This document shows, piece by piece, positions 1-32,599 of a stretch of 64,000 nucleotides of DNA. The stretch covers positions 64,001 to 128,000 of the IMG/VR virus record IMGVR_UViG_3300005573_000055. One strand, written 5' to 3'. The notes under the pieces are model-generated. The model was given only the letters and a program-made list of their open reading frames with translations, did no database searches and was not told the origin of the DNA. The first letter of the stretch is position 1, and every line of letters begins with the position of its first letter. The stretch comes from a virus. The translations under genes and the position numbers were made by a program.

Positions 1-85
1 TCTTATGCTTGGTTTTGACGTGAAGAATATCAACAAATCTGCGTTGATCTTCGTTGATATACATTATCAGGTCTTTAAGTATCAT
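1..85 (-). CDS. Partial hypothetical protein (runs off window start)
   Basis: ATG at 85 overlaps the ThiF stop (ATGA); frame MILKDLIMYINEDQRRF... is open to position 1. Confidence 0.6.
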   Translation of the reverse strand, partial: MILKDLIMYINEDQRRFVDILHVKTKHK

Positions 86-1233
86 GTTACACTTGCTGCT
101 ATGTTTTGCATCGCTTGTGATGACATATTTGAAAGAATGCTTTGCAGGGTTGTCTTTGGCTGACTGTTTAACTGAGCTAGTCTTTGTTTTTCTGCTTCAC
201 TTGTAAGAAAGACAGGTTCATTAATCTTAAATCTTCTTGTTTCACCAAACCTATTGAAGTAATAAACATCATACTCAAGCAAAGAACCAAGATAATCCAT
301 TGGCATTTGAGCAATACTCATCAGATTTACAAATTCCATCTTTGAAAGATTATCAATAAATGAGCCTTTTAAACCATACGTATAAAATATTTCTCTTAGA
401 TCAAACATTATCAAATATAGAATATTGAGTATCATGTTTGCAGCGGTTCTATTTATAGCTATACTTTGTGGTTTAGAGACAGCATTTTCTGCACATGATA
501 CTCTTGCAAGCTCTTCAGCTTCACGAAGCAGGCTTTCCTCTGTAAACAGTTCTGGCCATATAGTCTTCATACTTCTTGGTAATCCCAATTTTGGTCCTGT
601 AAGTATGATCTGCCCTTCCTTCTCGTCATTACCTGATGAAATTAGTAATACGTAGCTGCTATCATAAACACTTTCTATAAGACTGATAATACTATTACGC
701 ACTGTAAGATTATCAGTCGCATCAATTATTACCATAAAATCGCCATATGAATATCCAATGTCAAGCTCATTGCGTGAGGAGTCGACAAAGTTAATGTCTT
801 CAAACTTACAGACATGGGCCGATATTGGGAAACCTGATGCTATACTATAACGTTCTGCTAATACTTCTGCTTTTGGTTTGCCTATATCATTATAGATAAA
901 ATTCTGTCTTAGTATGTTCTTTTCTTCAACAATGTCTGGATCAACAATGTGTAAAAAGCAACTCATAGGAGGATTTGTTTGATCCTGCGTCTTTAAGAAG
1001 CTGTTGATCATCTGCACAAGACCGGGAATGACGTAGCCACCTGTGCCACCTGCACCTACAACAATGAATTTGAATCTTAGAAATCGATAGTTTCTTCCAC
1101 CTGTAACATCGTCAAAGTCACATATTTTATAATTGACAGTACGGTTTTGATCTATAGTAACCAAATATGGCATATAGATACGTAATTTCCCGTTTTCATA
1201 CTTAAGAAAAGAGTTGAATGTTGTATCTGTCAT
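82..1233 (-). CDS. E1-like/ThiF family activating enzyme (PRTRC ThiF-like)
   Basis: VVGAGGTGG nucleotide-binding loop; DPDIVEEKNILRQNF..DIGKPKAEVLAERY; IIDATDN; SCAE candidate catalytic Cys. Confidence 0.92.
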   Translation of the reverse strand: MTDTTFNSFLKYENGKLRIYMPYLVTIDQNRTVNYKICDFDDVTGGRNYRFLRFKFIVVGAGGTGGYVIPGLVQMINSFLKTQDQTNPPMSCFLHIVDPDIVEEKNILRQNFIYNDIGKPKAEVLAERYSIASGFPISAHVCKFEDINFVDSSRNELDIGYSYGDFMVIIDATDNLTVRNSIISLIESVYDSSYVLLISSGNDEKEGQIILTGPKLGLPRSMKTIWPELFTEESLLREAEELARVSCAENAVSKPQSIAINRTAANMILNILYLIMFDLREIFYTYGLKGSFIDNLSKMEFVNLMSIAQMPMDYLGSLLEYDVYYFNRFGETRRFKINEPVFLTSEAEKQRLAQLNSQPKTTLQSILSNMSSQAMQNIAASVT

Positions 1234-2213
1234 GGTTTACTGGCTCCATAAATTCTTTTATAAGAATCTAATATGCTTTCGATAGTTTTGTCTACACCTG
1301 GCTGCTTTGTTTCCTTCTTTTCACCTATGTATTTATTACTCTCAATGGTATTCGACACATCTTTACCATTAAGTCTTTTAGAACCAAAGAGACTGTCGTT
1401 GTCATCAAGGTCCCAATAATAATTTCCTTCATAATAATGACTTCCGTATTTTGAAACACCAAATTCGTCAGTAAAGCTATAACCATTATTCAAAGCTTTC
1501 TTCCAATCGCCAAATACAGATAAATCCGCCTTTCTTTCTTTGGTATCAAATATTGCACTGACAGGTAAGTTAACAAATTTTCCGCCAACATATGTTCTTG
1601 CAGAAATTGACGGTTCTTTGTTCATTATAGTACCAATAACCATGTAAATAATATTTTCTACATTGTGATCCCTATCATCAATGCCCGAGAAACTGCCCGT
1701 CATATTATGATGAGAATGTATCTCTATAGCATATTTATATTTCTCTTTCAAGCGAAAGATTTCCTGCATGGTCTCATCGTTAATATTGACAGATGCAGAA
1801 CTTACACGCTGTGGCATTACATAATAGTAAGGCTTATTATAGTCATTATCATTAAAGAAAAGATATACACACACTTCACTCGAATAGTGTTTATAGACTT
1901 CTCTAAAGAATTCAATTACATTGAAAAGCACTTCTTCAGGCAGTTTTGGTACATTGAGTTCAAAGGATTCATAAAGCTCGATGTTTATGCCCGGAAATAC
2001 GTAATCATACAACTTTACAGTAAACTTTCCTATTGAGTTAACTTTTCTTAAGAACATCCCGTTCTTAGCTATAATGAAAGCCTGCTTATCATCACTAGGA
2101 AGCTGGTCTATATAGTATTTATATTGATTGCGTAAGCCTTGAATTAATTCTGACATGGCTTGACTGTCAGTCTGTGTATTTACATACTGAGAATTTGATT
2201 TAGTGTTTAGCAT
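1230..2213 (-). CDS. JAB/MPN-family metalloprotease (PRTRC protein A-like deconjugase)
   Basis: SSEVC...PQRVSSASV...EIHSHHNMTGSFSGIDDRD (E...HxHx7SxxD JAB motif). Confidence 0.88.
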   Translation of the reverse strand: MLNTKSNSQYVNTQTDSQAMSELIQGLRNQYKYYIDQLPSDDKQAFIIAKNGMFLRKVNSIGKFTVKLYDYVFPGINIELYESFELNVPKLPEEVLFNVIEFFREVYKHYSSEVCVYLFFNDNDYNKPYYYVMPQRVSSASVNINDETMQEIFRLKEKYKYAIEIHSHHNMTGSFSGIDDRDHNVENIIYMVIGTIMNKEPSISARTYVGGKFVNLPVSAIFDTKERKADLSVFGDWKKALNNGYSFTDEFGVSKYGSHYYEGNYYWDLDDNDSLFGSKRLNGKDVSNTIESNKYIGEKKETKQPGVDKTIESILDSYKRIYGASKP

Positions 2214-2940
2214 ATAAATCTCCTAAAGTTATTTTACGTTTTGACGGCATTTTGGAAAGCCAATCATTTTCGCTACTGAATATTTTATCATGTGCATAGA
2301 TAAGGTCTCGTAGCGAGTCAGAGTTGAGATCAGTAGCACGCTGTGCTTCATGAATCATCCTAATGTTTCTTGTCACCATAGCTCCTAATGAATTGTCCCC
2401 CAATTCCATAGACACGGAGCCAAAACAAACTTTGCCATCATTATATATATTTGGCTGATAGCTTACAAGCAGTTGCGTATTTGGTCCACGATATTCATAC
2501 ATCATGTATGAATAGACCGTAATTGCACTTGCTTTTCTCTGTATGGAATCATACATCAAGTTAACTTGGTATAAATTATAAGGAATGTGAAGCTTAAGCG
2601 TTAGAGTCCCATTTTGACTGTCAAATATAGAAGCAAGATCAACATTTACTTCTTTAGCAAGATCTAATGCAGGTATTAAACCTACTCCTGTAACTCTGAG
2701 GTAATAAACGCTATTGTGGTTTGGAACGGCAACAAAGTAAGTATGATAATTGCCGTTTATATTTAAAGCTACAGTTCCCAACGGCAAGTCATAGACAAGC
2801 TCACTCTTTATGTTAAATATATCTTTGAGCTCATTAAAGGTCATTGGAAGCTTAACTACAGAAGGTTTGCCGAGGCTTTTGGTAAAATAATTAGCAACTA
2901 TAATGTCACTATATATGTCTAGTGAAATTATTTTATCCAT
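2200..2940 (-). CDS. Prokaryotic E2-like protein (PRTRC protein B-like)
   Basis: PNIYNDGKVCFG matches the E2 active-site PN(I/V)xxxGx(I/V)C motif; lies next to JAB and E1. Confidence 0.8.
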   Translation of the reverse strand: MDKIISLDIYSDIIVANYFTKSLGKPSVVKLPMTFNELKDIFNIKSELVYDLPLGTVALNINGNYHTYFVAVPNHNSVYYLRVTGVGLIPALDLAKEVNVDLASIFDSQNGTLTLKLHIPYNLYQVNLMYDSIQRKASAITVYSYMMYEYRGPNTQLLVSYQPNIYNDGKVCFGSVSMELGDNSLGAMVTRNIRMIHEAQRATDLNSDSLRDLIYAHDKIFSSENDWLSKMPSKRKITLGDLYAKH

Positions 2941-2949
2941 AGGTACTCC

Positions 2950-4632
2950 CTAAAAGTTTAAATAACTAATAAAGTCAAGTGCAACAAGTCCAGTAAGTAG
3001 CTTAGCTGAATTATCTGCTATTTTGTATAATATTTCTTCTGAGCGGCTGGCTGCATAGATAGCTTGACTGATATAATCGGCAGTTACAGAAGTGGATAAG
3101 TCAATAATAAAAGGAGGATGAGAGACAAATCCTTCATAACATGTTGCACCATAGCTTTTAATATTATAAGTATTGTATTTGCTTTTGTAGTCTTTACTCA
3201 TCCATGGAGCCAATTGAATCGAAGTGTATTCACTTTTACATACTATCTCTCTTATTGGTAGAAACGAATTAATTTCTGAGATAAGTAGTCTTACAAACAT
3301 GGAGTGATTACCATTATTAGATATTATATCGTCACCAACTACACGGCGAGTAATTTTAGTTACTTTTTCTGTGATCATAAGCGGTGGTATGTTCTCCATG
3401 ATCCCAAGAGCTGGTTTTTTCGAATCTAGCAGTGCCATATATGAATGTATTTTATGAATAACTAAAGCAGCTGCCAAATATGAATGCAAAATGCTTACTG
3501 CCATATATTTGATAAAGTTTGGGTATAAGAATTCTTCACCTGTACCGCTTTTGGCAAGCTTCATTGCAAGTATTTTCAAGTTTTTAATATTAAGAGAGCC
3601 ATCATTGTAGAATATAGCACCAAGACTTTCGTTTAGAAGTCTTAATATCATATAAAACTTTGCCATCGGGTGTATATTCAGCGATAAAACATGACTTACA
3701 GTGTTACTGAATATCTCTTTGCCGAATACTGCCATATATAAAAGCAGTACCTTGCCCATTGATGCACCAACATAAGTTGGCATCGTAAGTGGAGTATCTT
3801 TATCTTGAAATTTACAGTAATCAGGATAATTGCTATAAAATGCTTCAATCAGTTTGTGCGTGTTGCTGATTCTTATTTTTTTAGCATTGTCCAAATAATT
3901 AGCCATATATCTAATGGCAGGTCTATAATAATCACCAAGCGCTTCCATAAATTCTGAAGCATTGTCATATATAGCTGTATACGGAAATTCGTACATATGC
4001 GAGTAAGCATATATATTATCGATACAACCATAAGCGGGAAATAATGTGCTATATGGTACTTTGATATTACATCCTTCCTTTGCTAAAAATTCTTCAAAAT
4101 GGGAAGCTGCTAAGCTGTGTTCAAAATTAGATTCATTAATTATAACCTTCACCAATTTCACTATAGCCGAATCAGGTATTGGAAATAAAGCTTTCTCTTC
4201 GTTTGAGCAGACTTCCGTTTCCTTTTCTATAGTTTTTATTATATGATATAGGAAAAACACGTTCTCGTCAAATATTTCTGCATGATAGACTAAGTTGTTA
4301 AACTTGTATTTTAGCAATAGCCTTTTTTTGTCATCATGTTTGTAGTATCCATAAACTGCGGTATCTTTGAGATTGTCTTCTATCTTCTTTAGAACAATGG
4401 CTTCAAGGCCTGCTATATAAGTGTCAGTAAATCTATCCCATTGCTTCTGTTTCTTAAACAGCCGTCCCTTTTCTGGATAACTTACGTTTATAGAATTAAT
4501 AGATTTCTTGACAGAACTATCATACAATTTTAATCTTCTGAAATTATCCGCATTGCGCAGTACATAACTTGTATTGAGTAGAGCTATAAGCTCACTGCAA
4601 TTATTTATTTTCATTAAGTTTTCCATACACAC
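2950..4632 (-). CDS. Hypothetical protein in Ubl cassette (position of PRTRC protein F; possible target or E3-like factor)
   Basis: 560-aa ORF in the operon between Ubl and E2; no recognisable motif. Confidence 0.6.
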   Translation of the reverse strand: MCMENLMKINNCSELIALLNTSYVLRNADNFRRLKLYDSSVKKSINSINVSYPEKGRLFKKQKQWDRFTDTYIAGLEAIVLKKIEDNLKDTAVYGYYKHDDKKRLLLKYKFNNLVYHAEIFDENVFFLYHIIKTIEKETEVCSNEEKALFPIPDSAIVKLVKVIINESNFEHSLAASHFEEFLAKEGCNIKVPYSTLFPAYGCIDNIYAYSHMYEFPYTAIYDNASEFMEALGDYYRPAIRYMANYLDNAKKIRISNTHKLIEAFYSNYPDYCKFQDKDTPLTMPTYVGASMGKVLLLYMAVFGKEIFSNTVSHVLSLNIHPMAKFYMILRLLNESLGAIFYNDGSLNIKNLKILAMKLAKSGTGEEFLYPNFIKYMAVSILHSYLAAALVIHKIHSYMALLDSKKPALGIMENIPPLMITEKVTKITRRVVGDDIISNNGNHSMFVRLLISEINSFLPIREIVCKSEYTSIQLAPWMSKDYKSKYNTYNIKSYGATCYEGFVSHPPFIIDLSTSVTADYISQAIYAASRSEEILYKIADNSAKLLTGLVALDFISYLNF

Positions 4633-4643
4633 ACTCTTATTGG

Positions 4644-5105
4644 TTAGAAGTAACTCACAGATGTTGATGCTGATGGTCTATTCATCTTACTTAGTATAAT
4701 CTTCTTGAACTCTATCTTGTTGTAATTTGTCTTAGATACAATGTCATATTTTTCTTTCAAGTATTCAAGGATGGCTATCTGCTTTTCATCTAATATGCCT
4801 TTTCTCAAAATATATTCCCTTAACGCAGGAGATAAAGTCATTCCTATTTGAGATATTAGTGTACCTTTTATGTCTTCTGAATAACTAACACTATATAGAT
4901 AGCTAAACAGAAAGTTGATATATATGTAGTTTAGCAGGTCTCTTTGAGCTTTTTCATCAAGCTTTAATACATCTTTTACAGTAAACATATATGTCATAGC
5001 TTGAAAGATAAGATCTGACTCAATTTCTTTGAACATCATTTTAGCTGTATCATCTGACAGATTTTCAATTTTCTCTACAATTTGTTTGAGTATATTACCG
5101 TTCAT
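4644..5105 (-). CDS. Hypothetical helical protein in Ubl cassette
   Basis: 153-aa ORF with RBS, co-oriented. Confidence 0.65.
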   Translation of the reverse strand: MNGNILKQIVEKIENLSDDTAKMMFKEIESDLIFQAMTYMFTVKDVLKLDEKAQRDLLNYIYINFLFSYLYSVSYSEDIKGTLISQIGMTLSPALREYILRKGILDEKQIAILEYLKEKYDIVSKTNYNKIEFKKIILSKMNRPSASTSVSYF

Positions 5106-5177
5106 AGCAGCTCCTACATATTAAAATAAAGCACATTGGCATCCCGCCAACGTGCTATGAATAATTAAATCCTTTAA

Positions 5178-5366
5178 TTAACCTAATGTCTTCCCGGCTT
5201 TATAGAACATTACTTTGACCACATTATTTTCTTCATTGATTGTGCAGCTGTAATTATCAATTTCTGGGAAGCCATTTTGTTTTAAGACTTCTCTAATTTG
5301 ACTTTCAGGTAAGGTTCCGTTAAAATCTACTATGCGCTCACCGTTGATATAAACAGTTGTAGTCAT
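5178..5366 (-). CDS. Ubiquitin-like small protein (PRTRC protein C-like)
   Basis: 62 aa, beta-grasp-like pattern, ends ...VMFYKAGKTLG with a terminal Gly; upstream of E2/JAB/E1. Confidence 0.8.
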   Translation of the reverse strand: MTTTVYINGERIVDFNGTLPESQIREVLKQNGFPEIDNYSCTINEENNVVKVMFYKAGKTLG

Positions 5367-5397
5367 ATGTTATTTCTCCCTTTTTTGTTAAAAGTTA

Positions 5398-5931
5398 CTA
5401 AAAGTTATTATTTAAACGTTCTTTGAGCTGTTCAGCTATTTGCTGCTTTATACTGTCATACTCACTTTGAGTGCTAGAAGAAGCATCAGTTTTAATTTCT
5501 ATATTGCTTTCTTCTGGAAGCGTATCGGCTTCTTCTTGAAGTTTATCATTATCATCTTCTTTGCTGTCACTTTCTGCTGCTTTTGCTCGTAACTCTAAAG
5601 AAAGCTTTAAAGCATTATATAAATCGCTTTCACCACTGGTAGCAGCAGGCTCTGAAACTTCTTCTTCTTCGCTTTTGTCTTCATCTGCAAATTCATCTTC
5701 ATCTTCTTCAAAGTTATCATCTTCATAAATATCTTCTTCTTGCACCTGAGATACTTGACTAGAAGCTGCTTGTGCTTGGGATGCTTGACTAAGAGCTGCT
5801 TTAAGCTGTAAAGCTTTTTTGAGCTTGTCAGCATCAAGCTTATCTTGTGGCTCTGGGCCTTGAGGTTGATGTTCTGCAAATGTCGAGTTTTCGTAGATAA
5901 AGACATTTGCATTTGCAATGTTTACTATCAT
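5398..5931 (-). CDS. Acidic low-complexity protein (PRTRC protein E-like position)
   Basis: E/D-rich 177 aa; first gene of the cassette; LKxALxL(K/R)A-like motif occurs twice. Confidence 0.6.
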   Translation of the reverse strand: MIVNIANANVFIYENSTFAEHQPQGPEPQDKLDADKLKKALQLKAALSQASQAQAASSQVSQVQEEDIYEDDNFEEDEDEFADEDKSEEEEVSEPAATSGESDLYNALKLSLELRAKAAESDSKEDDNDKLQEEADTLPEESNIEIKTDASSSTQSEYDSIKQQIAEQLKERLNNNF

Positions 5932-6005
5932 AAGATCTCCCTATTTAGTTTTTACTTAGTTAAATGACTATCTATGCTTGAGAACTGTAGCTTTCTAAAC
6001 ACATA

Positions 6006-6030
6006 AAAACCTTTTATTCTACTAATTAAT
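6006..6030 (-). promoter_or_regulatory. Conserved 25-bp promoter-like motif, copy 1
   Basis: ATTAATTAGTAGAATAAAAGGTTTT, identical to 17711-17735; contains a TAGAAT -10-like box; intergenic, upstream of leftward genes. Confidence 0.65.
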
Positions 6031-6072
6031 GAACACCAAAGAGGATCATTAAGCAGTGTTTTATACCTAACT

Positions 6073-9000
6073 CTACAAAGTCTGCTGCATAGATAATAAA
6101 CACAATACATTGTCAATGAACTCTGATGAAAGTCTATAATATGATATATCTTTGTAGACATCACGGTTTAGGTACAAATTAGCAAGATTCTGCATGCTGC
6201 TTTCCCAGATATCGTCGTTTTTGCTTAGAATAGACATATCCTTGCCATTTGGCAATGTTGATATAATGGAAAACATACGGTTTTTCTGAGCAAGCTTTGC
6301 AACCTTTAGGAATTTCTTAATCATATCAGCACTGATAGAATGATTAGCATACAGATCCTGTGCAACTTCTTTATAGTTAAAGTATGGCAAGTAGTATTTT
6401 GAAAACGCAGAAGAGCCTGAGTCATTATGCTTGATACCTCGAATTACATAATCTTGAACTATTTTGCTATAGAGAAATTGCACATAAAGCATCTCATCGT
6501 AAGTCAGTTCTCCATTGAGATAAGCAAACTCGCTTGCGGCATTGAACTTCCAAAGAGACGATGTAGCTTTACCAACATCTGCTTTCGCAATTACAGCATT
6601 TGTAAATGTATTTACAAACCATGACTTTTCAATTATGTGAAACTTAAATTTAGCATTGTGGTCAAATGCTTTGGCAAGCTCATCGTTGAGATAGCTGTCT
6701 GTCCACTCCTGCTCATAGTTCTTTAATTTGTAATTATTCTCTTTGTAGTATCTATCTAATCTTTGTTGAATTTCTTTGTCAAAGATTATACATACTGGAT
6801 AGAGGTCTCCATCGCAGTCCGATTGATCAAGCAATATATCATATGGTGATCTTAAGACACATCCTTCGATAGAATAGATATCAATATATTTACTTAGACT
6901 GATACCTTGTGCTTTGATATGCTTTTCAAATTGTCTGCGTGTCCATACTTGTTTTACTTGAAATTGATGTCTCCAGATAACAGGATTTCTAACGCCTATT
7001 TCATAGATAGGCATATCTTCATTTTCGGCACGAAATGCAACAATCTTTTTTTCAAGCTCTTTATCTATAACAACAGAAATACCTTGCGGTATAAAAGCGC
7101 ATAACATTTGCTTAAAGTAGCCACCATATCCATTTACCGCTACTGCTGAGGCAAGGTATCCATGCTTTTCAAATAGTTTGAATATTATTCTCTTCTTGAG
7201 AATTTCATTGATAATTGTGATTCTGTCGTATAGAGTATTTTCATCAATTGATCTTTTAACATAGTCTCGCAAGTTTCGGTATATCATGCCAATTTGAACA
7301 GCAAAGTCGTTAATCACATAGATACTGTTTATTCCAAAAGAAATAGCAACGTTAGATATCATTCTTAGAGATGGCAGTTTAATATATCTACTGCCCACCT
7401 TAAGTGTTAAACCATTAGGAAAGAGTTTAATAATTTTGTTGTTTAAGAACTCACTGGGATTTTTAGCTATCATGATATTCATTTCAAGAAGCATAGCACG
7501 AATCTCTGAGCTTTCAATACTTACAGCATTGTCTATGTCTTCTTGACTAACAACAAAGTAGCTTATAATTTCGCGCAAGAACTGCTGTGAATAAGCATCA
7601 GAGTATTTATCAAGGAGCTTATAGGTAATTTCTTCAAGATCAGCGTTGTTCGATGTAAGCATTATCTTTAAGGTCTCAGGCATAATACGTATAAAGTCGG
7701 TCTTATAGTCAGCTGAGAGTTCTGTAACACCAAAGGTTACGTATCCGCAGTAGACATCATAGACTTTTCCGTTGTAATGCCATTTGACCATTCTTAGATC
7801 GCTGCATAAAGCTTCTATGTCGTCTTCACTTAGTGAACTTGGATCTATGTAAGTATGAGTTTCCTTTAGAACATTTTTAAGCGCTATCCATGAGAGTTTA
7901 AGACCATTGTTTAAGCTTTTCATGGATACAGGGCCTAATACCATACTTACAGGAAACCTGTTGTCTTCCCCTTCTTCAAGAATATCTTCAGGTAATTCTA
8001 CATAGCCTAAATTTCTATATGGAATAGTAACACCTTTAAGGCCGATTTCGTTGATAATTCTTGATACACCAATGCCAGTTTTAATTTGAAGCGTGATTTT
8101 GTATAAATCATCCTGCAGTTCTACAGATTGAATTACAGCACCAGGATACTTAAAGTTATATATAAGCTCATTTTCCCCGTTATAGTTTATTGCAATTGGA
8201 TCTCCGGGTTTAAGAATTGTTCCAACTGGCATTACGTAGACATCTTTTTTGCAAAGAAGTACTCTTGATGAATAAACTTGTCTTTCAGAGAGTTCTTTGC
8301 TGATAGGTATTTCTCCCCCAATAAGGGAATATTTGCCAAATGGGCTGTCTTCTTTATCCCCGATGTTTAGAAATATGCAAAGCGCACCAATTTTCTCGGC
8401 TGGATAATCCTCTGGCATAAGAGGATCTTTTTCTGGCATTACAGGACGTTTATATTCAGACGTAATATGCTGACGGAGTCTTTCTGGAATATTGGATTTT
8501 TTTGGGAATATGGTTATTATCTTTTCAGAGTCTCTATAGAATCCTGGAGCTTTATATTCATCGTGCTCTTTACAGAATATACCTTCTGCCGCCGATGTTA
8601 CAGATATGAGATTGCTAAATTTATCAATAATACTTCTAAGTTTCTTCTTAGCACGTATAACATTACCGTAAAGCAAGGCATCTCCTATATACTCATAATA
8701 GATGTTGTCTTTCTCACTAACAAATGGATTAATGACAAATACTCGGTTGTTTATCTTAGCAGCATTGTTTCTTGTCCAGATATCAGCTTTGTACTGAAGC
8801 TCATTTATTCTGGAAATATAGTGTCTGAGTCTTGATATGATATTGTAATCTGAGTTTGAATGACTTCTGTAGAACTTGTAAAGTGTATCATAAATTACAA
8901 GTCTATAGAACTGTTTAAGATTAAACTCTTTCTCTGAGATGTCATATATGTAAATGTATGGATACTCAGATACAACATCTTTAGGTATATCAACGTATAT

Positions 9001-9195
9001 ATCTGTAAAGCTTATTCTTATAGAAGAGCTATTTTCATCAGAATCGATAAAGAATGAATCGATGTTGTAGTTAAATACATCGAAGATTTCTTCGATGCTT
9101 TTATCTATATACAGCTCATAATTAGCAGGAAAGAATGTATTTGCTTTATAGTTCTGGTCTAATTGAGTTAATGTGCTGTTGATATTCTCGTTCAT
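6073..9195 (-). CDS. Single-chain two-barrel DNA-dependent RNA polymerase (beta/beta' fusion type)
   Basis: Beta-like: VGTILKPGDPIA, SRIINEIGLKGV, PVSMVLGP, VYCGYV. Beta'-like: GVRNPVIWRH and catalytic QSDCDGDLY (DxDGD). Confidence 0.85.
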   Translation of the reverse strand: MNENINSTLTQLDQNYKANTFFPANYELYIDKSIEEIFDVFNYNIDSFFIDSDENSSSIRISFTDIYVDIPKDVVSEYPYIYIYDISEKEFNLKQFYRLVIYDTLYKFYRSHSNSDYNIISRLRHYISRINELQYKADIWTRNNAAKINNRVFVINPFVSEKDNIYYEYIGDALLYGNVIRAKKKLRSIIDKFSNLISVTSAAEGIFCKEHDEYKAPGFYRDSEKIITIFPKKSNIPERLRQHITSEYKRPVMPEKDPLMPEDYPAEKIGALCIFLNIGDKEDSPFGKYSLIGGEIPISKELSERQVYSSRVLLCKKDVYVMPVGTILKPGDPIAINYNGENELIYNFKYPGAVIQSVELQDDLYKITLQIKTGIGVSRIINEIGLKGVTIPYRNLGYVELPEDILEEGEDNRFPVSMVLGPVSMKSLNNGLKLSWIALKNVLKETHTYIDPSSLSEDDIEALCSDLRMVKWHYNGKVYDVYCGYVTFGVTELSADYKTDFIRIMPETLKIMLTSNNADLEEITYKLLDKYSDAYSQQFLREIISYFVVSQEDIDNAVSIESSEIRAMLLEMNIMIAKNPSEFLNNKIIKLFPNGLTLKVGSRYIKLPSLRMISNVAISFGINSIYVINDFAVQIGMIYRNLRDYVKRSIDENTLYDRITIINEILKKRIIFKLFEKHGYLASAVAVNGYGGYFKQMLCAFIPQGISVVIDKELEKKIVAFRAENEDMPIYEIGVRNPVIWRHQFQVKQVWTRRQFEKHIKAQGISLSKYIDIYSIEGCVLRSPYDILLDQSDCDGDLYPVCIIFDKEIQQRLDRYYKENNYKLKNYEQEWTDSYLNDELAKAFDHNAKFKFHIIEKSWFVNTFTNAVIAKADVGKATSSLWKFNAASEFAYLNGELTYDEMLYVQFLYSKIVQDYVIRGIKHNDSGSSAFSKYYLPYFNYKEVAQDLYANHSISADMIKKFLKVAKLAQKNRMFSIISTLPNGKDMSILSKNDDIWESSMQNLANLYLNRDVYKDISYYRLSSEFIDNVLCLLSMQQTL

Positions 9196-9664
9196 TGATG
9201 ACTTCCTTCAGTAAGTTTATGCTATTAAGAATACTTTGCCTTAGTGTGCCGTTGTAGATTGAATGTACTATAACTGAAGACTTTGACAGGTTATAGGAAC
9301 CATAAATATATTTATTAATCAGCCTGAAATACTTGTCGTGCTTTCCTGAAAGCACAAAGGCACCAAGCATCAATGTTGGTTCAGATACTTTTCTAAATGT
9401 CCATGTCAATGTAGTTTTGATTAGTGAAGCAGTATATCCTGGCAGAAGATATAAATTACCGATAGATTGATTATCTACAGTATCCCTTACTGGAGATATA
9501 ATTATAGGAATACATGGCAGCACTGGCTTTACGTTTGCACTTCCATCTTTGTTTGTAACAGCGGTGGAGAATTCGATGAAGTCTTTGACAAGCTCAAAAG
9601 ACTTATTACCAAGGATGATTTTAGTTTCCTTGTAGGTTATAATTTCATTGAATTCTTTGTTCAT
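9146..9664 (-). CDS. Hypothetical protein overlapping the RNAP start (possible accessory subunit)
   Basis: 172-aa ORF with RBS; overlaps the RNAP gene. Confidence 0.6.
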   Translation of the reverse strand: MNKEFNEIITYKETKIILGNKSFELVKDFIEFSTAVTNKDGSANVKPVLPCIPIIISPVRDTVDNQSIGNLYLLPGYTASLIKTTLTWTFRKVSEPTLMLGAFVLSGKHDKYFRLINKYIYGSYNLSKSSVIVHSIYNGTLRQSILNSINLLKEVINEREYQQHINSIRPEL

Positions 9665-9752
9665 TTGATTCTCCTATGATATAACTTAATGCTTTTTAAG
9701 TGCTGGCATAGGCTTGGTATGCCAGCTACAGTAGACCAGCAGGCTTTTGCAT

Positions 9753-9938
9753 TTAGAAGCTGCTAATTGCTCCTAACAATCCAGCCATTGTTAGAAACAA
9801 TCTTCCAATCAGATACAGAAGACGTCCTGCGCCAGCACTAAACAGAAGTATTATTCCCATAAGTATTAGTGCTGCAATCAAGGTTAGTCTTTCTGCACTG
9901 CCTTGGAGTCTTCTAAATACAGCTATTGCTTGTTGCAT
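9753..9938 (-). CDS. Small membrane protein
   Basis: Two hydrophobic segments; GGAGG RBS. Confidence 0.55.
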   Translation of the reverse strand: MQQAIAVFRRLQGSAERLTLIAALILMGIILLFSAGAGRLLYLIGRLFLTMAGLLGAISSF

Positions 9939-9955
9939 ATATCCTCCTGCTGGGT

Positions 9956-10564
9956 TTATGTGGATAAGGCAATCTGTCCTGCTTTGACTCCAAGTAGTTC
10001 TTTTAGAGATTCTCTTGTAATAGTAATTACATTGTCAGACTTGGCTGATAAATTTATGTTACTGTCAAGGAAAGAGAATGTCACACGAAGGTTTTCAGTA
10101 TCATAATGAACAATCAGTTGTGATATTACATCCTTTGTAAGACTTTCTTTGGATAGGCTTACCATATATTCAGCATAAGTAAACGGATAATAGCTGTGAT
10201 ATAAGTCAGTGTATCGTGTAAGTATACGATTAAACTCAATAAAGTCCTCCATATTATATTTGGATGTAATGAAGATATTATTAATCCTAGTAGCATTTTG
10301 TTGGAATTCTGCTATAACACCTATTTTTTTGCTTCGACATAGAGATATTATATCATATTCATCCTCCGGCCTAATGGTTATTGGATTGATTAGCTTACAG
10401 AATTTGACTATTACTTCGTTTAGTGCAACTTTATCAGTTGCTCTTTGATCTTGGATATTTTCCATAGCGCACACTCTTATTTTTGACAATTGAAAACTAA
10501 CACCTATTTGAATCTGAGTGATGCTACAATAAAGTTTCTGAAAAGCGACTATTTCATTTATCAA
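9956..10564 (-). CDS. Hypothetical protein
   Basis: 202-aa ORF divergent from parA; start uncertain. Confidence 0.55.
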   Translation of the reverse strand: MINEIVAFQKLYCSITQIQIGVSFQLSKIRVCAMENIQDQRATDKVALNEVIVKFCKLINPITIRPEDEYDIISLCRSKKIGVIAEFQQNATRINNIFITSKYNMEDFIEFNRILTRYTDLYHSYYPFTYAEYMVSLSKESLTKDVISQLIVHYDTENLRVTFSFLDSNINLSAKSDNVITITRESLKELLGVKAGQIALST

Positions 10565-10586
10565 AAGAAATCCTTATAATTGCATT

Positions 10587-11351
10587 ATGACTATGATATT
10601 GTCAGTCGTTTCGCGAAAAGGAGGCACTGGTAAGACTACTACAGCAGTCAACCTTGCCGCATATTTGTCGGATAATTTCCGTGTACTGCTTATTGACATT
10701 GACTCACAATGCGGGGCTACCTATGAGTCGGGAATATACAATACAGACACTCCAGGCATAAATGATCTACTTACTGGCAAGAAATCTGTTGAAGAGGTGT
10801 TGCATAAAACTACATATAAGTATGACATGATTATATCAACTCCCATGCTTTCATTTACAGAAATGTCTATGAATAGGTATAATACTAATTACCTTAAGAA
10901 GCTTATATCTCCTATTGAAGATAGATATGATATTATCATTATAGATACACCGCCTACAGAATCACCATTGACTGCTTTCTCTATAGTGGCATCAACGCAT
11001 ATAATTATCACAGCTCAAACTGATCGTCGTTCCCTTGATAGTTTAGCTTTAACAGTTGATGAGGTTTATATTCTTAAAGAAAATGTAAATCCAAACCTTA
11101 AGATTATAGGCATACTCCCTACAATGCATTATTCAAAAGCCATAGTAAGCAGAGTCATGTTAGAGAAGATGCAGGAAAAGTATAAGGAGTTAGTGTTGCC
11201 GTTTATCGTCAAGTATAGTGCTGTATATAAGGAAGCATCTCTTGCATCGATACCTTTAAGATATTATCTCAATAAGTCTGCACTTGAGGATGAACCATAT
11301 AATAAACTTGCAACATATATAGGTGATATATGTCGAAATTCAACGAACTAA
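10587..11351 (+). CDS. parA: ParA/Soj family partition ATPase
   Basis: Deviant Walker A RKGGTGKTT; LLIDIDSQ; IIIDTPP; GILPTM. Confidence 0.95.
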   Translation: MTMILSVVSRKGGTGKTTTAVNLAAYLSDNFRVLLIDIDSQCGATYESGIYNTDTPGINDLLTGKKSVEEVLHKTTYKYDMIISTPMLSFTEMSMNRYNTNYLKKLISPIEDRYDIIIIDTPPTESPLTAFSIVASTHIIITAQTDRRSLDSLALTVDEVYILKENVNPNLKIIGILPTMHYSKAIVSRVMLEKMQEKYKELVLPFIVKYSAVYKEASLASIPLRYYLNKSALEDEPYNKLATYIGDICRNSTN

Positions 11352-11665
11352 GAAAGATGTACGAAAGACAGTCTCAGCAGATTACTGAGAAGATTGTCAT
11401 CACTGAAAAGATTAGCACTCCAGAAATTCCACAGAGCCAACAGATTGAGCCAAATGATATAAAGCTATTAATCTCTCAGATTCCTATTCAAAGATTTGAC
11501 TATAAGACCACAGTTTTCTTAACTGAAGAAGACTATCTTATGGTCAAACGCATTTTATACAAGCTTCAGCAAAGGAACAGGAAGATGACTTTTCGGCAGT
11601 TAATACACATAATGATACAAAAAGCTGGGTCAGAGATTGAAAAATTTTTAGACGGTCAGTCGTAA
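11330..11665 (+). CDS. Probable centromere-binding adaptor (ParG/omega-like ribbon-helix-helix)
   Basis: Overlaps parA; flexible N-terminus and C-terminal KTTVFLTEEDY...TFRQLIHIMIQ strand-helix-helix pattern. Confidence 0.7.
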   Translation: MSKFNELRKMYERQSQQITEKIVITEKISTPEIPQSQQIEPNDIKLLISQIPIQRFDYKTTVFLTEEDYLMVKRILYKLQQRNRKMTFRQLIHIMIQKAGSEIEKFLDGQS

Positions 11666-12060
11666 AGTCATATAGTCATAAAAGCATATCCTCATAAAGT
11701 AATACTATCATAAATGCGTATAACCATAAAACCGTATTATCACAAAGTCATACTGCCGTAAAGCTATAATATCATATAGTCATGCTTTCATAAAGTCATA
11801 AAATCATACTGCCGTAAAGTCGTACCTTAACAAAGTCATAAAGTCGTAAAGTCGTAAAGTCATATTATCACATAGTCATTCTTTCACAAAAGCATAAAGT
11901 CATAAAATCATATAGTCGCACTTTCATAGAACCATAAAGTCATATTATAATAAAGTCATACTATCATACAGCCATAAAATCATAATGTAGTAAAGTCATA
12001 CTATTATATAGTAATAAAGCCATACATTCTTAGAATCATAAAGTCATAAAATCATAAAGT
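11657..12060 (+). repeat. Degenerate 8-bp tandem array (consensus ~TAAAGTCA), putative centromere
   Basis: ~400 bp holding an 8-bp period (taaagtca, tatagtca, taaaatca, taaagtcg...) immediately after parA and the adaptor. Confidence 0.85.
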
Positions 12061-27968: not shown

Positions 27969-28175
27969 TTATTCTTTTCTATCAGCTTTTTTGTCATCAT
28001 GCTTACTATCAAAGAGCTTGTTAGCTTTAATAGTAAGCTCTTCGCCGGCAGGATTTTTAAATACATAAATCACATCACCAGTGTCAACTTCTACATCTTC
28101 GCCGATATACTTATATCCTCTTTGCTCTAAGGCTATCTTAAGAGAGTTAATTAACTTTTCAACGTTTTTATCCAT
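27969..28175 (-). CDS. Hypothetical protein
   Basis: AAGGAG RBS. Confidence 0.55.
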   Translation of the reverse strand: MDKNVEKLINSLKIALEQRGYKYIGEDVEVDTGDVIYVFKNPAGEELTIKANKLFDSKHDDKKADRKE

Positions 28176-28194
28176 ATTTTATAACTCCTTTATT

Positions 28195-29841
28195 TTATTT
28201 ATCTAAATGCCAATCTACAAGTTTAGCTGCTCGGCCTTCGTGGCCTTTAAATCCAGCAACCTTAGCCACACGGCCGATGTACTGATCTTTATTCTCCATA
28301 ATGTCAAGAACTGTATCATAGTTGCCAACCTGACCTGGTCCAAGCTTAAATCTTTTGCCTGACTCTAAAGATCTACACCACATAACACCTGCGATAGCAC
28401 CTTTGTCAGTGATTCTAAAGTCAATGTCTTCAACTATCCAATCAAAAAGATCTTCACGCCACTTGATCTTAAAACCATTAATAATGGAATCACCAAAGCC
28501 AGTAGCAACAAGCCCTTCCATAGAACGATCATCTATATCGGTAAGCTCAACTACTTTGAGAATATCTGGCTTAAGAAGAGCAACTTTCTCTTGGAATTTT
28601 CTATTCTCAAAGAAGGGAGCATCATAAAGCTTTAAGTTTCCATATTTATCTACGCGATAGAGCCTAATTTCTGGCTGGACATTATCAGGTCTAAGCGAGT
28701 TGGAGTTTAGTATTCCGCCAATTTCATGGGCTGGAATATATCCTCCGGGAATAATGCCAAAATACTTCTTCCGGAAGAGAAGCTCTCCCATAGCTTTAAT
28801 CTCTTTCTCAGAAGAAACATCTGCCAATTCCCAGACTTTAGGTGTATATTCTATCCTTCGGCCCGTAGTTTTACTTATTCGCGGGGAATAGATTCTTGTG
28901 CCTTTCTTTGTAGTCCAGACGTAACAACTAGCTCCATCATATTTCTTAGTAATTGTCGCCGGATCAATTTTCTTCTCAAACTCGCTAACAGTATCAATGA
29001 GCTTTAAGTGCAATCTATCTTCAAACCTAACATCAGGATTAGTCTTAAAGCCCCAAACAGCGATAGGAGTCTTGCCATCATAAAGTTTATGGATGTATAT
29101 AGTATTATCAGGATCCAGCTGTGGGATATACATTTCTGCAGTTTCACCTTTTCCGCCGGAAATCTTCATAATCAAAGCATCTCCTTCAAGGACCTTCTGT
29201 CTAGTAAAACCACTACCATAGCCTTGACTTAGACTGCCGTTAAAGAACTCAAAAGAAGCCTCACTTTTAGAATGGTCAATATTTTGAGGAACTCTCGAGC
29301 GATTACTAATCTCTTCCCGCAAAAATGCAATAAGCTCTTTCTTGGAAGTTTCAGTCAAATGTCCATCTCTATTAAACTTAATTTTACTTTCCACAGGCTT
29401 ACCAGATACTCTTACAATGAAAGAAGTGCCATTTCCAAAATGCACATCAAGGTGTTTGCCTGCTCTACTGGCATCATGATAGACAACAACAAAGCTTGTT
29501 TTTCCCTTAGAAGAAAACCAGCTTCTTCTGCCAAGAAAGAGGTGAGACTCATTTATGTTATGCATCCTAATTACTTTCATTGCAGCCAGATCAACAATAC
29601 TAAAAGCAACCATAAAGCCAAAGCTTTCGCCTAAACGCTCGGCAAAGTGTCTTCCATCCCCCTTTTTCGCCCGAAAAATAAACGCTCCCTTCCTTGCAAC
29701 CCTCAAAGCCTTAACAAGCTTTCCAACAGGAAGTAAACCAACAAAATTCCAAAAACTAAGCCTTCCTAAACCTAAAGACCTACTTCCCTGGCCAACAACA
29801 ATACTAAACTCCTCTAAGAATTTCACTTTTCCTCCTTGCAT
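28195..29841 (-). CDS. ATP-dependent DNA ligase fused to a LigD-type 3'-phosphoesterase domain
   Basis: PE-like VVVYHDASRAGKHLDV, IDHS, GYGSG; ligase motif I KKYDG, MGEL, EGLV, FKIK; C-terminal OB-like region. Confidence 0.75.
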   Translation of the reverse strand: MQGGKVKFLEEFSIVVGQGSRSLGLGRLSFWNFVGLLPVGKLVKALRVARKGAFIFRAKKGDGRHFAERLGESFGFMVAFSIVDLAAMKVIRMHNINESHLFLGRRSWFSSKGKTSFVVVYHDASRAGKHLDVHFGNGTSFIVRVSGKPVESKIKFNRDGHLTETSKKELIAFLREEISNRSRVPQNIDHSKSEASFEFFNGSLSQGYGSGFTRQKVLEGDALIMKISGGKGETAEMYIPQLDPDNTIYIHKLYDGKTPIAVWGFKTNPDVRFEDRLHLKLIDTVSEFEKKIDPATITKKYDGASCYVWTTKKGTRIYSPRISKTTGRRIEYTPKVWELADVSSEKEIKAMGELLFRKKYFGIIPGGYIPAHEIGGILNSNSLRPDNVQPEIRLYRVDKYGNLKLYDAPFFENRKFQEKVALLKPDILKVVELTDIDDRSMEGLVATGFGDSIINGFKIKWREDLFDWIVEDIDFRITDKGAIAGVMWCRSLESGKRFKLGPGQVGNYDTVLDIMENKDQYIGRVAKVAGFKGHEGRAAKLVDWHLDK

Positions 29842-30163
29842 TTTTCCGCATAATTACAGTAATCAACACAGAAATAGCATTCGACATAGTCAATCCCAAA
29901 ATACCACCAGCAACAGCATCACCAAAGCCAAGCATCGAAACAAGGAAGCAAGTAACAAACAAATCAAGCAGGAAATACCTGCCGAGACTGAAAAACCTAC
30001 CAATATTGCGGAACAATGAAAATACCTTGCCAAAGAAATCAACAATAAAATTTCCCTTCGGCCGATAAATATACACATTCTCCAAGAAAGGCCTAAGCTC
30101 CAAATACCAAAACCACACAGCTACAACAACCATTGCAACACCAAGCAAAAGCAACATTGCCAT
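29804..30163 (-). CDS. Membrane protein
   Basis: Three hydrophobic segments; GGAG RBS. Confidence 0.6.
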   Translation of the reverse strand: MAMLLLLGVAMVVVAVWFWYLELRPFLENVYIYRPKGNFIVDFFGKVFSLFRNIGRFFSLGRYFLLDLFVTCFLVSMLGFGDAVAGGILGLTMSNAISVLITVIMRKNARRKSEILRGV

Positions 30164-30390
30164 AGCTTACTTCTCCTTTATTGTTTTAAACTTAGATAAA
30201 GCACCAAATGCCTTCTCCTGCAACTTAGAAGTTAATTTCCAGAAAGTCAAGAACAGCACGCTGTAAATAAACACTCTCAATGAAGAAAAGTACATCTTCA
30301 AGTAGTGTTTAACCTTAATGACCATAATGCCTCCTTAATGACTCTTAAATGCCTCTTTTAGGCTGTTTTTCATTTGAGTTAGAAAAGTAA

Positions 30391-30407
30391 GGCGGGTCTT
30401 GCCCGCC
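30391..30407 (-). terminator. Probable intrinsic terminator after ssb
   Basis: GGCGGG/CCCGCC hairpin followed by TTACTTTT on the minus strand. Confidence 0.55.
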
Positions 30408-30432
30408 CTGGAACACCTGGATTGGCAGAGGA

Positions 30433-30843: not shown

Positions 30844-31136
30844 GCTATTTCCTCCGATGTTTGTTTGAGTGTTAACTTTTTGGATTTGTAGAGATTGTCA
30901 AGAACAGTCTTAGAGACGTTTAATTCTCTGATGGTAAGCCCATTGCGGACGACTAGGGATATTTTCCCGAGCAAAGAGGATATAGTTTGTATATCTTTCT
31001 GGCTGCAGGAGCTTCCATCTAATTTTTGCGGGCGAAGGACATACATTGTTCCTTCTTTGCGGGAATCAAATTTCCTCACAATCTGGAACATGATGTCCTT
31101 CTTCTTACTCTTTGGAACTAAGTAGTACATTGTCAC
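30840..31136 (-). CDS. Hypothetical protein
   Basis: GGAGG RBS; coupled to ssb. Confidence 0.55.
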   Translation of the reverse strand: MTMYYLVPKSKKKDIMFQIVRKFDSRKEGTMYVLRPQKLDGSSCSQKDIQTISSLLGKISLVVRNGLTIRELNVSKTVLDNLYKSKKLTLKQTSEEIA

Positions 31137-32591: not shown

Positions 32592-32599
32592 AGCCGCTC

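Follow-up and report, generated by a model that had tools for sequence, protein, structure and literature searches.

A very divergent, ParB-less relative of the PRTRC cassette is joined to a reverse transcriptase gene in a phage genome

The cassette and its genomic setting

The 64,000-nucleotide stretch of DNA analysed here (the window) covers positions 64,001 to 128,000 of IMG/VR virus record IMGVR_UViG_3300005573_000055, a record of 155.5 kb with a CheckV completeness of 88%. The list of open reading frames and their translations places seven co-oriented, tightly packed genes on the minus strand at positions 82-5931, which encode, in order along that strand, an acidic protein, a ubiquitin-like protein (Ubl), proteins of 153 aa and 560 aa, an E2-like protein, a JAB peptidase, and a ThiF-type E1. 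Neighbouring genes are separated by gaps of 9-72 nt or overlap by 4-14 nt, and a GGAG-type Shine-Dalgarno sequence lies upstream of six of the seven. An initial annotation of the same DNA had described a complete, co-oriented Ubl/E2/JAB/E1 set; all seven genes are found where it placed them with catalytic residues intact, and the catalytic motifs it quoted are real and conserved in the alignments of E1, JAB, and E2.

The phage context is confirmed: the source, a large uncultured phage, is a virus record, and the window holds genes for the terminase large subunit (55230-57203) and the portal (60420-62141). Misassembly, which had been raised as a concern, is excluded by the nearest relative (L002), which has the same cassette gene order and the same neighbour genes, and by a GC content that is even (0.33-0.36) across 1-28 kb of the window. 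Directly upstream of the cassette lies a gene for a 1040-aa protein with a DCDGD motif (6073..9195, minus strand). It had been read earlier as a phage RNA polymerase and shows no match in Pfam, NCBIfam, PHROGs, PADLOC, or PDB sequences; L002 (4.6e-141) and two further relatives, L007/L011 (3.2e-51), encode homologs upstream of their cassettes.

The operon extends leftwards beyond the E1 gene, a feature absent from the initial annotation. The first 28 codons of a retron-type reverse transcriptase (RT) gene occupy positions 1..85 of the minus strand, and the reading frame (280 aa, YGDN; RVT_1 1.7e-18) continues past the left edge of the window. Its ATG (85-83) overlaps the TGA stop of the E1 gene (84-82) as ATGA within the sequence GTA ACA TGA TAC. 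The RT gene is followed by genes for an 84-aa Lar-type zinc ribbon and then a 164-aa Whirly protein.

Components of the cassette

The acidic protein (177 aa; 5398..5931, minus strand), at the position of protein E of PRTRC (ParB-related, ThiF-related cassette), has a pI of 4.05 and a D+E content of 26%, and its gene is preceded by the Shine-Dalgarno sequence GGGAG. It matches no family in Pfam, NCBIfam, PHROGs, or PADLOC, and the protein E profile TIGR03741 likewise gives no match. An acidic protein (pI 4.0-5.0) nevertheless precedes the Ubl gene in seven of ten related phage loci, and canonical PRTRC_E proteins have a pI of 4.3-5.0.

The 62-aa Ubl (5178..5366, minus strand), a homolog of PRTRC protein C, ends in KTLG followed by the stop codon and so carries a free C-terminal Gly62. 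Its AF2 model (pLDDT 85.2) shows two strands, a helix, and two further strands with a floppy tail at residues 56-62, the beta-grasp topology on which the initial annotation depended. Most of its top 50 VIA matches are beta-grasp Ubls (Z 4-5.3), including the BilA-type Ubl 8tyz_B (Z 4.6) and MoaD proteins. These structural matches, and those of the E2-like protein, are weak (Z 4-5.4), and neither model has a significant Foldseek match. By sequence, the protein C profile TIGR03738 finds nothing in the genome, and an HMM built for the phage Ubl family from the window Ubl as seed matches canonical PRTRC_C at 5.3e-10. A signature FPEL...AG(T/A)KG is common to the phage Ubls and canonical protein C, and the phage family has the C-terminus (K/R)xGTKG with a conserved terminal Gly. 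The window Ubl is a single unit. In some relatives the Ubl is encoded as two to five head-to-tail units, each ending in a Gly tail, and some are short-capped; such poly-Ubl genes imply cutting after Gly.

Between the Ubl and 153-aa genes lies a terminator-like hairpin (5130..5156, minus strand) with an 11-12 bp stem (12 pairs, six of them G-C) and a U-rich tail. The 63-nt stretch around it folds at -19 kcal/mol (z -3.2), a value equalled by one of 200 shuffles. The hairpin may act as a partial terminator and so allow the tag to outnumber the enzymes; it is taken as a lead only because the region holds four terminator-like sites where 3.9 are expected by chance.

The slot between the Ubl and E2 genes is variable. 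Its first gene encodes a 153-aa orphan (4644..5105, minus strand; Shine-Dalgarno AGGAG) with no family in Pfam, NCBIfam, PHROGs, or PADLOC and no Atlas relative; the 85-aa protein that L002 encodes in this place is not similar to it. The second, at the position of PRTRC protein F, encodes a 560-aa orphan (2950..4632, minus strand; 558 aa from a probable ATG at 4626). A search of 5.8 billion proteins returned only the protein itself, as did a full HMMER pass over 1.84 billion representatives, and its Atlas model has a pLDDT of 0.31. It matches neither TIGR03742 nor an HMM of three canonical PRTRC_F proteins, which in turn found no phage ORF. The slot genes are unrelated between lineages, and F-position proteins cluster among close relatives only. 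The 560-aa protein is a candidate specificity factor or substrate. The initial annotation had viewed both ORFs as candidate targets or E3-like factors; the lineage-variable position fits this view, and the role itself is a guess.

The E2-like protein (246 aa; 2200..2940, minus strand) is a relative of PRTRC protein B/Prok-E2_D with a UBC/RWD fold and a catalytic Cys172. Taken alone, it is matched weakly by Prok-E2_D (2.1e-3) and PRTRC_B (TIGR03737; 15.2 bits, E 0.01), while ten of 21 same-position proteins in related phages match PRTRC_B at E <=0.01 (best 2.8e-6). E2 enzymes and RWD domains dominate the top 50 VIA matches of its model (pLDDT 71.5; Z <=5.4). N164 and C172, eight residues apart, are invariant in 21 sequences, and C172 is the only Cys in the protein. 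Further downstream, the phage family, the window protein included, has the motif N-x-D-L with invariant N206 and D208 where canonical PRTRC_B has F-T-H-P-N. Canonical PRTRC_B has an HPN histidine and a downstream histidine, neither of which is present in the window protein.

The JAB/JAMM metallopeptidase (327 aa; 1230..2213, minus strand) is related to PRTRC protein A, carries a JAB-N region at its N-terminus, and is matched by TIGR03735 (PRTRC_A; 46 bits, 4.3e-12) and Prok-JAB (3.5e-5). E113, H166-S167-H168, S176, and D179 are invariant across the phage and canonical PRTRC_A proteins, which also have G52 and P92 of the N-terminal region in common, and 39 of 48 related ORFs retain an intact HSHx(7-8)SxxD. 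The adjoining E1 (383 aa; 82..1233, minus strand) contains the nucleotide-binding GAGGTGG loop, Cys247 within SCAE, and an extra C-terminal 100 aa. Its domain content in Pfam is ThiF only (9.1e-11), and TIGR03736 (PRTRC_ThiF) matches at 84.5 bits (6.9e-24). Across 22 sequences there is no variation in the GAGGTGG loop, R109/Q110, D174, or C247 (SCAE).

Distribution among phages

Related E1 proteins are encoded in 49 IMG/VR contigs, where they form about ten deep lineages, and in cultured phages of Bacillus, Salmonella, Vibrio, and Acinetobacter. Maintenance of the module over such a range argues for selection in phages. Some relatives are also expressed, as LC-MS detected both the E1 and the protein at the E2 position in Salmonella phage Arash (PMC10585845). 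An RT gene lies within 830 nt after the E1 gene in 13 of the 49 related loci and does not adjoin it in the other 36; hence the kit can do without an RT. Our literature search found no paper on the phage cassette.

Comparison with PRTRC and other known systems

The initial annotation had assigned the locus the layout of PRTRC, and this holds for gene order and for the nearest family match. The window order acidic-Ubl-(153)-560-E2-JAB-E1 corresponds to the canonical E-C-F-B-A-ThiF; for example, the Cupriavidus plasmid NZ_CP016951 reads ParB-E-C-F-B-A-ThiF. PRTRC models are the best family matches for the phage E1, JAB, and E2, profile matching identifies the Ubl as a protein C homolog, an acidic protein precedes the Ubl in both, and in both a JAB with a JAB-N region adjoins the E1. 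In the E1 tree, the window protein pairs with that of L002 in a starred 94-row group that includes canonical PRTRC ThiF, though outside the canonical clade. However, a search with the PRTRC models, as had been suggested, gives scores that are all far below cut-off: 84.5 against 144.75 bits for TIGR03736, 46 against 101.8 for TIGR03735, and 15.2 against 131.45 for TIGR03737. By the NCBIfam cut-offs the cassette is therefore not a PRTRC member, and PRTRC is its nearest detectable relative.

The phage cassette also differs from PRTRC in content and lacks both ParB and protein D. As the initial annotation had stated for the window, there is no PRTRC ParB, and TIGR03734 and PF02195 find no match anywhere in the 155.5-kb record. 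Profiles for proteins D, E, and F (TIGR03739, TIGR03741, TIGR03742) also give no match, and genes of similar size or charge occupy the E and F positions. The F-position protein of the phage is an unrelated orphan and the 153-aa gene is extra; the phage E2 has N-x-D in place of T-H-P-N of canonical B; and Gly is the last residue of the phage Ubl, with canonical C running on for three more. The phage cassette is phage-borne and followed by an RT gene, whereas PRTRC resides on plasmids and integrative elements.

PRTRC (NCBIfam TIGR03734-03742) corresponds to operon type 6d of Iyer, Burroughs and Aravind 2006 (PMC1779556), to which the Pfam families Prok-E2_D and Prok-JAB belong. Of the features described for this type, the phage has a small free-standing beta-grasp protein whose C-terminal Gly is conserved, an E2-like protein with a conserved Cys, and a JAB with JAB-N adjoining a rhodanese-free E1. 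The absolutely conserved downstream His of the E2 is missing from the phage family. The JAB-N of type 6d has a strictly conserved Arg and Trp, and an alpha-helical protein with conserved polar residues is encoded between its Ubl and E2 (PMC1779556); the corresponding phage slot holds the 560-aa gene, which has no detectable relative. A tested function of PRTRC, or a biochemical test of any PRTRC/6d system, was not found in the literature searched.

Bacterial defence systems provide the functional analogs. Bil (BilABCD) and Bub (6E/DUF6527) encode a Ubl, an E2, a JAB-type peptidase, and an E1 in separate genes, as does the phage (PMC10557695, PMC11601596, PMC11601603), and by analogy the same chemistry would be expected of the phage cassette. 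Yet these are anti-phage defences of the host and not a conserved phage module, and the Bil models in PADLOC show no sequence match to the cassette proteins. Their multi-domain Ubls consist of unlike beta-grasp domains with one terminal Gly (PMC11601603), in contrast to the identical repeats of the phage poly-Ubls, each ending in GTKG. Similarly, type II CBASS shares the E1/E2 and JAB logic, with Cap2 as an E2-E1 fusion and Cap3 as the JAB, but its conjugated moiety is the CD-NTase whereas the phage has separate E1 and E2 genes and a dedicated small Ubl. The E1 domain gives weak PADLOC matches to CBASS-type 'E1-E2' models (best 23.6 bits). The head-to-tail units of the relatives resemble eukaryotic polyubiquitin, though what the phage Ubl has in common with ubiquitin is the fold and not the sequence.

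A probable conjugation module and its possible roles

The cassette is likely a working, phage-adapted ubiquitin-like conjugation module that shares its lineage with the plasmid PRTRC cassettes but lacks ParB, conjugation being proposed on the model of Bil, Bub, and CBASS Cap2. We infer the following course. The Ubl, already ending in Gly62, would need no trimming; the E1 would adenylate this Gly and take the Ubl onto Cys247, from which it would pass to Cys172 of the E2-like protein and on to lysines of target proteins. The JAB peptidase would take the tag off again and, in relatives with a poly-Ubl or capped Ubl, also cleave the precursor. The cassette has no recognisable E3, and the lineage-specific slot proteins (153 aa, 560 aa), perhaps with the acidic protein, may select the targets or be the targets. 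The cassette forms one operon with the RT gene, after which come the zinc-ribbon and Whirly (ssDNA-binding) genes, so during infection the tagging machinery would be co-produced with this nucleic-acid module and would probably act with or on it.

What such a machine would be aimed at may be viewed in more than one way. It is possible, at rather less than even chances, that it is turned against the host, either tagging and disabling host proteins, including those of defence, or using the JAB to strip the conjugates of Bil, Bub, or CBASS Cap2. Conserved enzymes combined with a lineage-variable slot are a pattern typical of conflict systems, and every bacterial Ubl system characterised has a role in phage-host conflict (PMC11601603). 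Stripping, however, would be served by a stand-alone JAB, yet the complete set is retained, its own Ubl included; moreover, no similarity to Bil proteins is seen in PADLOC, and the host is not known to possess a Ubl system. More doubtfully, the same machine may stabilise, mark, or regulate the virion, assembly, or replication proteins of the phage itself, possibly the RT or Whirly protein. A need for the tag in large, stoichiometric amounts is suggested by poly-Ubl genes of up to five units, and translational coupling links the cassette to the RT, zinc-ribbon, and Whirly genes. In Bacillus phage vB_BceM_WH1, the gene encoding a penta-Ubl carries the annotation 'virion structural protein', a label for which no paper was found. 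Likewise, the Arash E1 and E2-position protein come from a particle proteome, but 116 proteins are listed in this 'structural proteome', ribonucleotide reductases among them, so that it is not virion-specific (PMC10585845).

Defence systems are often phage-borne, and the kit could thus be cargo that excludes competing phages as Bil does for bacteria. This is improbable, as many large phages have the module as a syntenic core block amid their transcription and replication genes rather than as an accessory island, and the PADLOC defence models yield weak E1-domain matches only. It is very improbable that no protein is tagged and that the E1 and Ubl serve a ThiS/MoaD-type sulfur-carrier or other acyl-adenylate pathway, for example an RT-linked modification of nucleic acids or cofactors. 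ThiF and MoeB models are weak second-rank matches of the E1 (best equivalog score 31.9 bits, below the cut-off of 159), MoaD proteins occur among the fold matches of the Ubl, and JAB, Ubl, and E1 are also found together in sulfur pathways (PMC1779556). Nevertheless, no rhodanese domain is detected, the E2-like protein with its invariant single Cys is always present, and the poly-Ubl precursors suit a consumable tag.

Gene order and phage setting

The conjugation cassette proposed in the initial annotation for 82-5931 is borne out by the ORF calls, which place seven co-oriented genes on the minus strand. These encode an acidic protein of 177 aa (5931..5398), a ubiquitin-like protein (Ubl) of 62 aa (5366..5178), proteins of 153 aa (5105..4644) and 560 aa (4632..2950), an E2-like protein of 246 aa (2940..2200), a JAB protease of 327 aa (2213..1230), and a ThiF-type E1 of 383 aa (1233..82). 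The intergenic gaps are 9-72 nt, overlaps of 4-14 nt join the last three genes, and six of the seven genes have a GGAG-type Shine-Dalgarno site upstream. For the 560-aa gene, the probable start is two codons in, at the ATG at 4626, which matches the 558-aa version deposited in the public collection.

The window covers positions 64001-128000 of a single virus record of 155,523 bp (completeness 88%, CheckV), and the phage setting claimed for the cassette holds, with a terminase large subunit at 55230-57203 and a portal at 60420-62141. Megablast of positions 1-12000 against phages gave no match. The nearest relative, a 154-kb IMG/VR contig (L002) whose E1 is 37% identical, keeps the whole block in the order 1030-aa protein, acidic protein (98 aa), Ubl (62 aa), 85-aa protein, 211-aa protein, E2, JAB, E1, reverse transcriptase (RT), zinc ribbon, and Whirly protein. 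Because of this shared synteny, the even GC content (0.33-0.36 over 1-28 kb of the window) and the Shine-Dalgarno sites, a misassembly or non-phage insert is ruled out; a decayed remnant is likewise ruled out, as every catalytic residue is intact and conserved. Farther along, at 28000-48000, the GC content climbs from ~0.34 to 0.40-0.51 and drops again past 48 kb, which marks a compositionally distinct island.

The conjugation enzymes

Alignments with relatives support the catalytic sets that had been read as intact in the three enzymes. In the E1 (Pfam ThiF, 9.1e-11), the GAGGTGG loop, R109, Q110, D174, and C247 of the SCAE motif are invariant in 22 aligned sequences. In the JAB, the residues E113, H166, S167, H168, S176, and D179 are invariant, also when protein A of the canonical plasmid cassette PRTRC (ParB-related, ThiF-related) is included, and G52 and P92 of the N-terminal JAB-N region are common to phage JAB and canonical protein A. 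The E2-like family (21 sequences) has P120, N164, C172, N206, and D208 as invariants; C172 is the sole cysteine of the window's protein, and the 8-residue Asn-to-Cys spacing is that of the UBC HPN...Cys site.

The AlphaFold model of the E2-like protein (pLDDT 71.5) has no significant match in Foldseek. In a Foldseek-independent search, E2 enzymes (Ubc9, UBE2J2, UBE2F, UBC12, UbcH5c, Ubc13, and Atg10) and RWD/FANCL domains dominate the top 50 over residues 46-246 (Z <=5.4), so that an E2/RWD fold is the consistent theme of the model matches and is weakly suggested by them. The E2 profile has no match among PDB sequences, and its search of a large protein collection returned two proteins only. 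Among the relatives, the JAB ORF is split into two to three pieces in loci L016, L025, L008, and L049, and the E1 likewise in L034, L036, and L049, in some cases separated by a gene on the opposite strand, a pattern that points to inserted mobile genes, introns or inteins and not to decay.

The Ubl and its head-to-tail relatives

The identity of the Ubl is argued more strongly by sequence than by structure. An HMM grown from it over related phage loci describes a family with (K/R)xGTKG at the C-terminus or close to it, and this HMM matches the protein annotated as PRTRC protein C on a Cupriavidus plasmid (5.3e-10), with which the phage family has the signature FPEL/YPEL...AG(T/A)KG in common; the NCBIfam PRTRC_C model does not match the window's Ubl. 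The check named beforehand, whether the 62-aa protein lacks a beta-grasp fold, did not refute the assignment. The model (16 relatives as basis; pLDDT 85.2) has the topology strand-strand-helix-(short helix)-strand-strand, followed by a disordered tail (56-62) ending in Gly. Foldseek gave nothing significant for it, and in a wide search ubiquitin-like beta-grasp proteins made up most of the top 50. The best single match is the FdhD N-terminal domain (Z 6.9); MoaD (6jc0, Z 5.3), the Ubl of a bacterial E1-E2-Ubl complex (8tyz_B, Z 4.6), TINCR, Fubi, SUMO, and ISG15 are also found.

The window's Ubl is a single unit whose KTLG tail terminates exactly at Gly, and that of L002 has one extra Lys. Several relatives carry poly-Ubl genes with identical head-to-tail units, every one of which terminates in AGTKG: L026, L047, and L050 have three units, L015 has four or five, and L020 has two. 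For example, gp211 of Bacillus phage vB_BceM_WH1 (L052:2775-3674) consists of five equal-length 57-aa units, each ending in QAGTKG, and a 15-residue tail, and has counterparts in the phages Edson and KLEB27-3. It is annotated as ‘virion structural protein,’ a label for which a literature search found no basis. The architecture is that of eukaryotic polyubiquitin and implies cleavage after Gly, presumably by the JAB.

Directly after the Ubl gene of the window lies a strong hairpin with a U-rich tail (5156-5130, minus strand; -19 kcal/mol, z -3.2). It may be a partial terminator or internal attenuator that makes the tag outnumber the enzymes, a reading offered only as a lead since such sites in the region number at chance level.

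Relation to PRTRC and operon type 6d

The PRTRC/6d type has been catalogued since 2006 (PMC1779556). Operon type 6d comprises a small Ubl with a C-terminal Gly, an alpha-helical unknown, an E2-like protein, JAB-N with JAB, and E1 (PMC1779556). The PRTRC-type layout ascribed to the window is confirmed, as its order acidic-Ubl-(153)-560-E2-JAB-E1 equals the annotated order ParB-E-C-F-B-A-ThiF of the Cupriavidus taiwanensis plasmid NZ_CP016951 from E onward, with one extra gene. Profile searches with the PRTRC, Prok-E2 and JAB models, which had been suggested as a check, returned these families as the best matches but did not reach their cut-offs. The best NCBIfam model for the E1 is PRTRC_ThiF (84.5 bits, 6.9e-24; cut-off 144.75); the JAB scores 46 bits with PRTRC_A (cut-off 101.8) and 24.1 bits with Prok-JAB (cut-off 25); and the E2-like protein weakly matches Prok-E2_D (18.3 bits) and PRTRC_B (15.2 bits), the latter being matched singly by 10 of the 21 members of the E2-like family (best 2.8e-6). 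PHROGs gave almost no matches to the cassette. Membership of the Bil or CBASS systems is ruled out by PADLOC, which found weak matches only, of the E1 domain to CBASS-type E1-E2 models.

The differences from PRTRC are several, and all PRTRC scores fall far short of the family cut-offs. The absence of a PRTRC ParB extends to the whole 155,523-bp record, which has no ParB or ParB_N domain. Where plasmids have ParB, the window has a gene for a 1040-aa protein (6073-9195, minus strand). This protein carries a DCDGD motif and has homologs upstream of the cassette in L002 and in L007/L011; searches of Pfam, NCBIfam, PHROGs, PADLOC, and PDB sequences returned nothing for it. PRTRC proteins D, E, and F have no model match in the cassette, and canonical PRTRC_F is unrelated to the 560-aa protein at its position. 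An acidic protein (pI 4.0-5.0) precedes the Ubl in 7 of 10 phage loci, as PRTRC_E does in the canonical cassette, and the 177-aa protein gave no match with canonical PRTRC_E as the query. Canonical PRTRC_B has T-H-P-N, with a histidine called absolutely conserved (PMC1779556), whereas the window's E2-like protein has N-x-D there.

In a FastTree phylogeny of 111 E1 sequences, which is rough and has long branches, the window pairs with L002 (support 83) as one of about ten deep lineages of poorly separated order. This lineage lies inside a starred group of 94 rows, which also holds the canonical PRTRC ThiF clade, itself starred and separate from the window's lineage. Because of these differences and the E1 tree, the cassette is filed not as a family member but, judged from its sequence, as a relative that would work like PRTRC/6d outside the NCBIfam PRTRC families. 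It is the most divergent form in this analysis, with a single ready-made Ubl.

Distribution and the variable slot

Scanning IMG/VR by E1 alignment yielded 49 loci, many of them on contigs of 100-315 kb, while a scan of viral contigs with a single protein gave none. A JAB ORF is present in 44 of the 49, nearly always directly before E1, and the recurrent layout is Ubl (60-90 aa or poly-Ubl), small protein, 200-585-aa protein, E2-like protein (220-280 aa), JAB, and E1. Cultured phages with this E1 include Bacillus phages Edson, vB_BceM_WH1, and vB_BauM_KLEB27-3, Vibrio phages D69/D148/D181, Salmonella phage Arash, and Acinetobacter phage ME3. Scanning gut Clostridia genomes added many more E1 copies on MAG contigs (L055-L094), which form a large clade and have the rotated layout JAB(~450)-E1(~240)-60-454-103-200-224-280-586. 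These copies are probably phages or prophages binned into MAGs, since IMG/VR viral contigs nest within the same clade.

The proteins encoded between the Ubl and E2 genes group only among close relatives. In a search of 5.8 billion proteins and in a full HMMER pass over 1.84 billion representatives, the sole match of the 560-aa protein was itself. Pfam, NCBIfam, PHROGs, and PADLOC gave no match for it and Atlas nothing usable, it does not resemble its positional counterpart in L002, and by these searches it is a true orphan. Likewise, nothing was found for the 153-aa protein in Pfam, NCBIfam, PHROGs, PADLOC, Atlas or its L002 counterpart. A conserved enzyme core beside a fast-changing or replaceable partner is the pattern to be expected if, in a conflict system, that partner served as substrate or specificity factor.

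Coupling to a reverse transcriptase

The stop codon of the E1 (TGA, 84-82) directly overlaps the ATG (85-83) of the next gene, which encodes a retron-type RT of 280 aa (RVT_1, 1.7e-18) with YGDN replacing YxDD. The genes after it encode an 84-aa Lar-type zinc ribbon, a 164-aa Whirly protein, and four unknowns, and then comes nrdJ. Of the 49 phage loci, 16 have an RT <=10 kb from the E1 and 13 have one <=830 nt downstream of it, and the RT-linked loci are scattered across several deep E1 lineages. None was found near the cassette at three canonical plasmid PRTRC loci.

Proposed mechanism and possible benefits

The best-supported reading is a complete cycle of tagging, activation, transfer, and removal, every chemical step of which we infer by homology from systems that have been tested, namely Bil, Bub, and Cap2 (PMC11601603). 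Gly62 of the Ubl would be adenylated by the E1 and then carried on C247, handed to C172 of the E2 and from there onto target lysines; the JAB would reverse the tagging and, in relatives with precursors, would also process those. The bacterial Ubl conjugation systems tested so far (CBASS Cap2/Cap3, Bil, and Bub) are host weapons against phages (PMC11601603). Here it is the phage side that owns a complete Ubl kit, retained over deep phage lineages.

As to what the phage would gain from this cycle, tagging of host proteins, for take-over or counter-defence, and tagging of the phage's own proteins, either of the virion or of the RT/Whirly module, carry roughly equal weight. A sulfur-carrier role and a use in keeping out rival phages are given little weight. 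Less likely than not, in our estimate, is a broader version, in which large phages run their own Ubl-tagging as a core infection function, here functionally wired to the YGDN RT, the zinc ribbon, and the Whirly ssDNA binder; for example, the RT complex or its cDNA-bound proteins might be tagged or controlled by the Ubl, with the lineage-specific orphan proteins as E3-like selectors. If true, no viral Ubl-conjugation pathway would precede such RT-wired core tagging in prokaryotes, and protein tagging would be newly linked with reverse transcription.

A full-text literature search found no experimental study of PRTRC/6d, the one operon type of the 2006 catalogue of which this holds, and the full-text literature, including a 2021 jumbo-phage survey, gave no description of phage-borne PRTRC-like cassettes, phage poly-Ubl genes or the RT link. 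The targets, once found, would also tell what PRTRC does on plasmids, and would reveal whether bacterial viruses evolved polyubiquitin-style precursors and E3-like specificity factors of their own, independently. The RT coupling in the window's lineage adds a second unexplained partner.

Expression in cultured relatives

Direct testing is possible through cultured relatives, namely Salmonella phage Arash and Bacillus phages vB_BceM_WH1, Edson, and KLEB27-3. The LC-MS ‘structural proteome’ of Arash comprises 116 proteins (PMC10585845), and its record (L115, OQ632216) labels gp246c (E1) and gp248c (E2 position) as ‘structural protein.’ Since the list also includes ribonucleotide reductases and RNA ligases, the detection is taken to mean that these two proteins are made, not as proof that they are virion parts. 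The Arash Ubl has 66 aa, ends in RTGTKG and lies at L115:107-307, in a frame that differs from that of the annotated gp251c (L115:102-320). The gp251c product as annotated is a hydrophobic non-Ubl sequence, and the frame chosen in the deposited annotation is apparently the wrong one.
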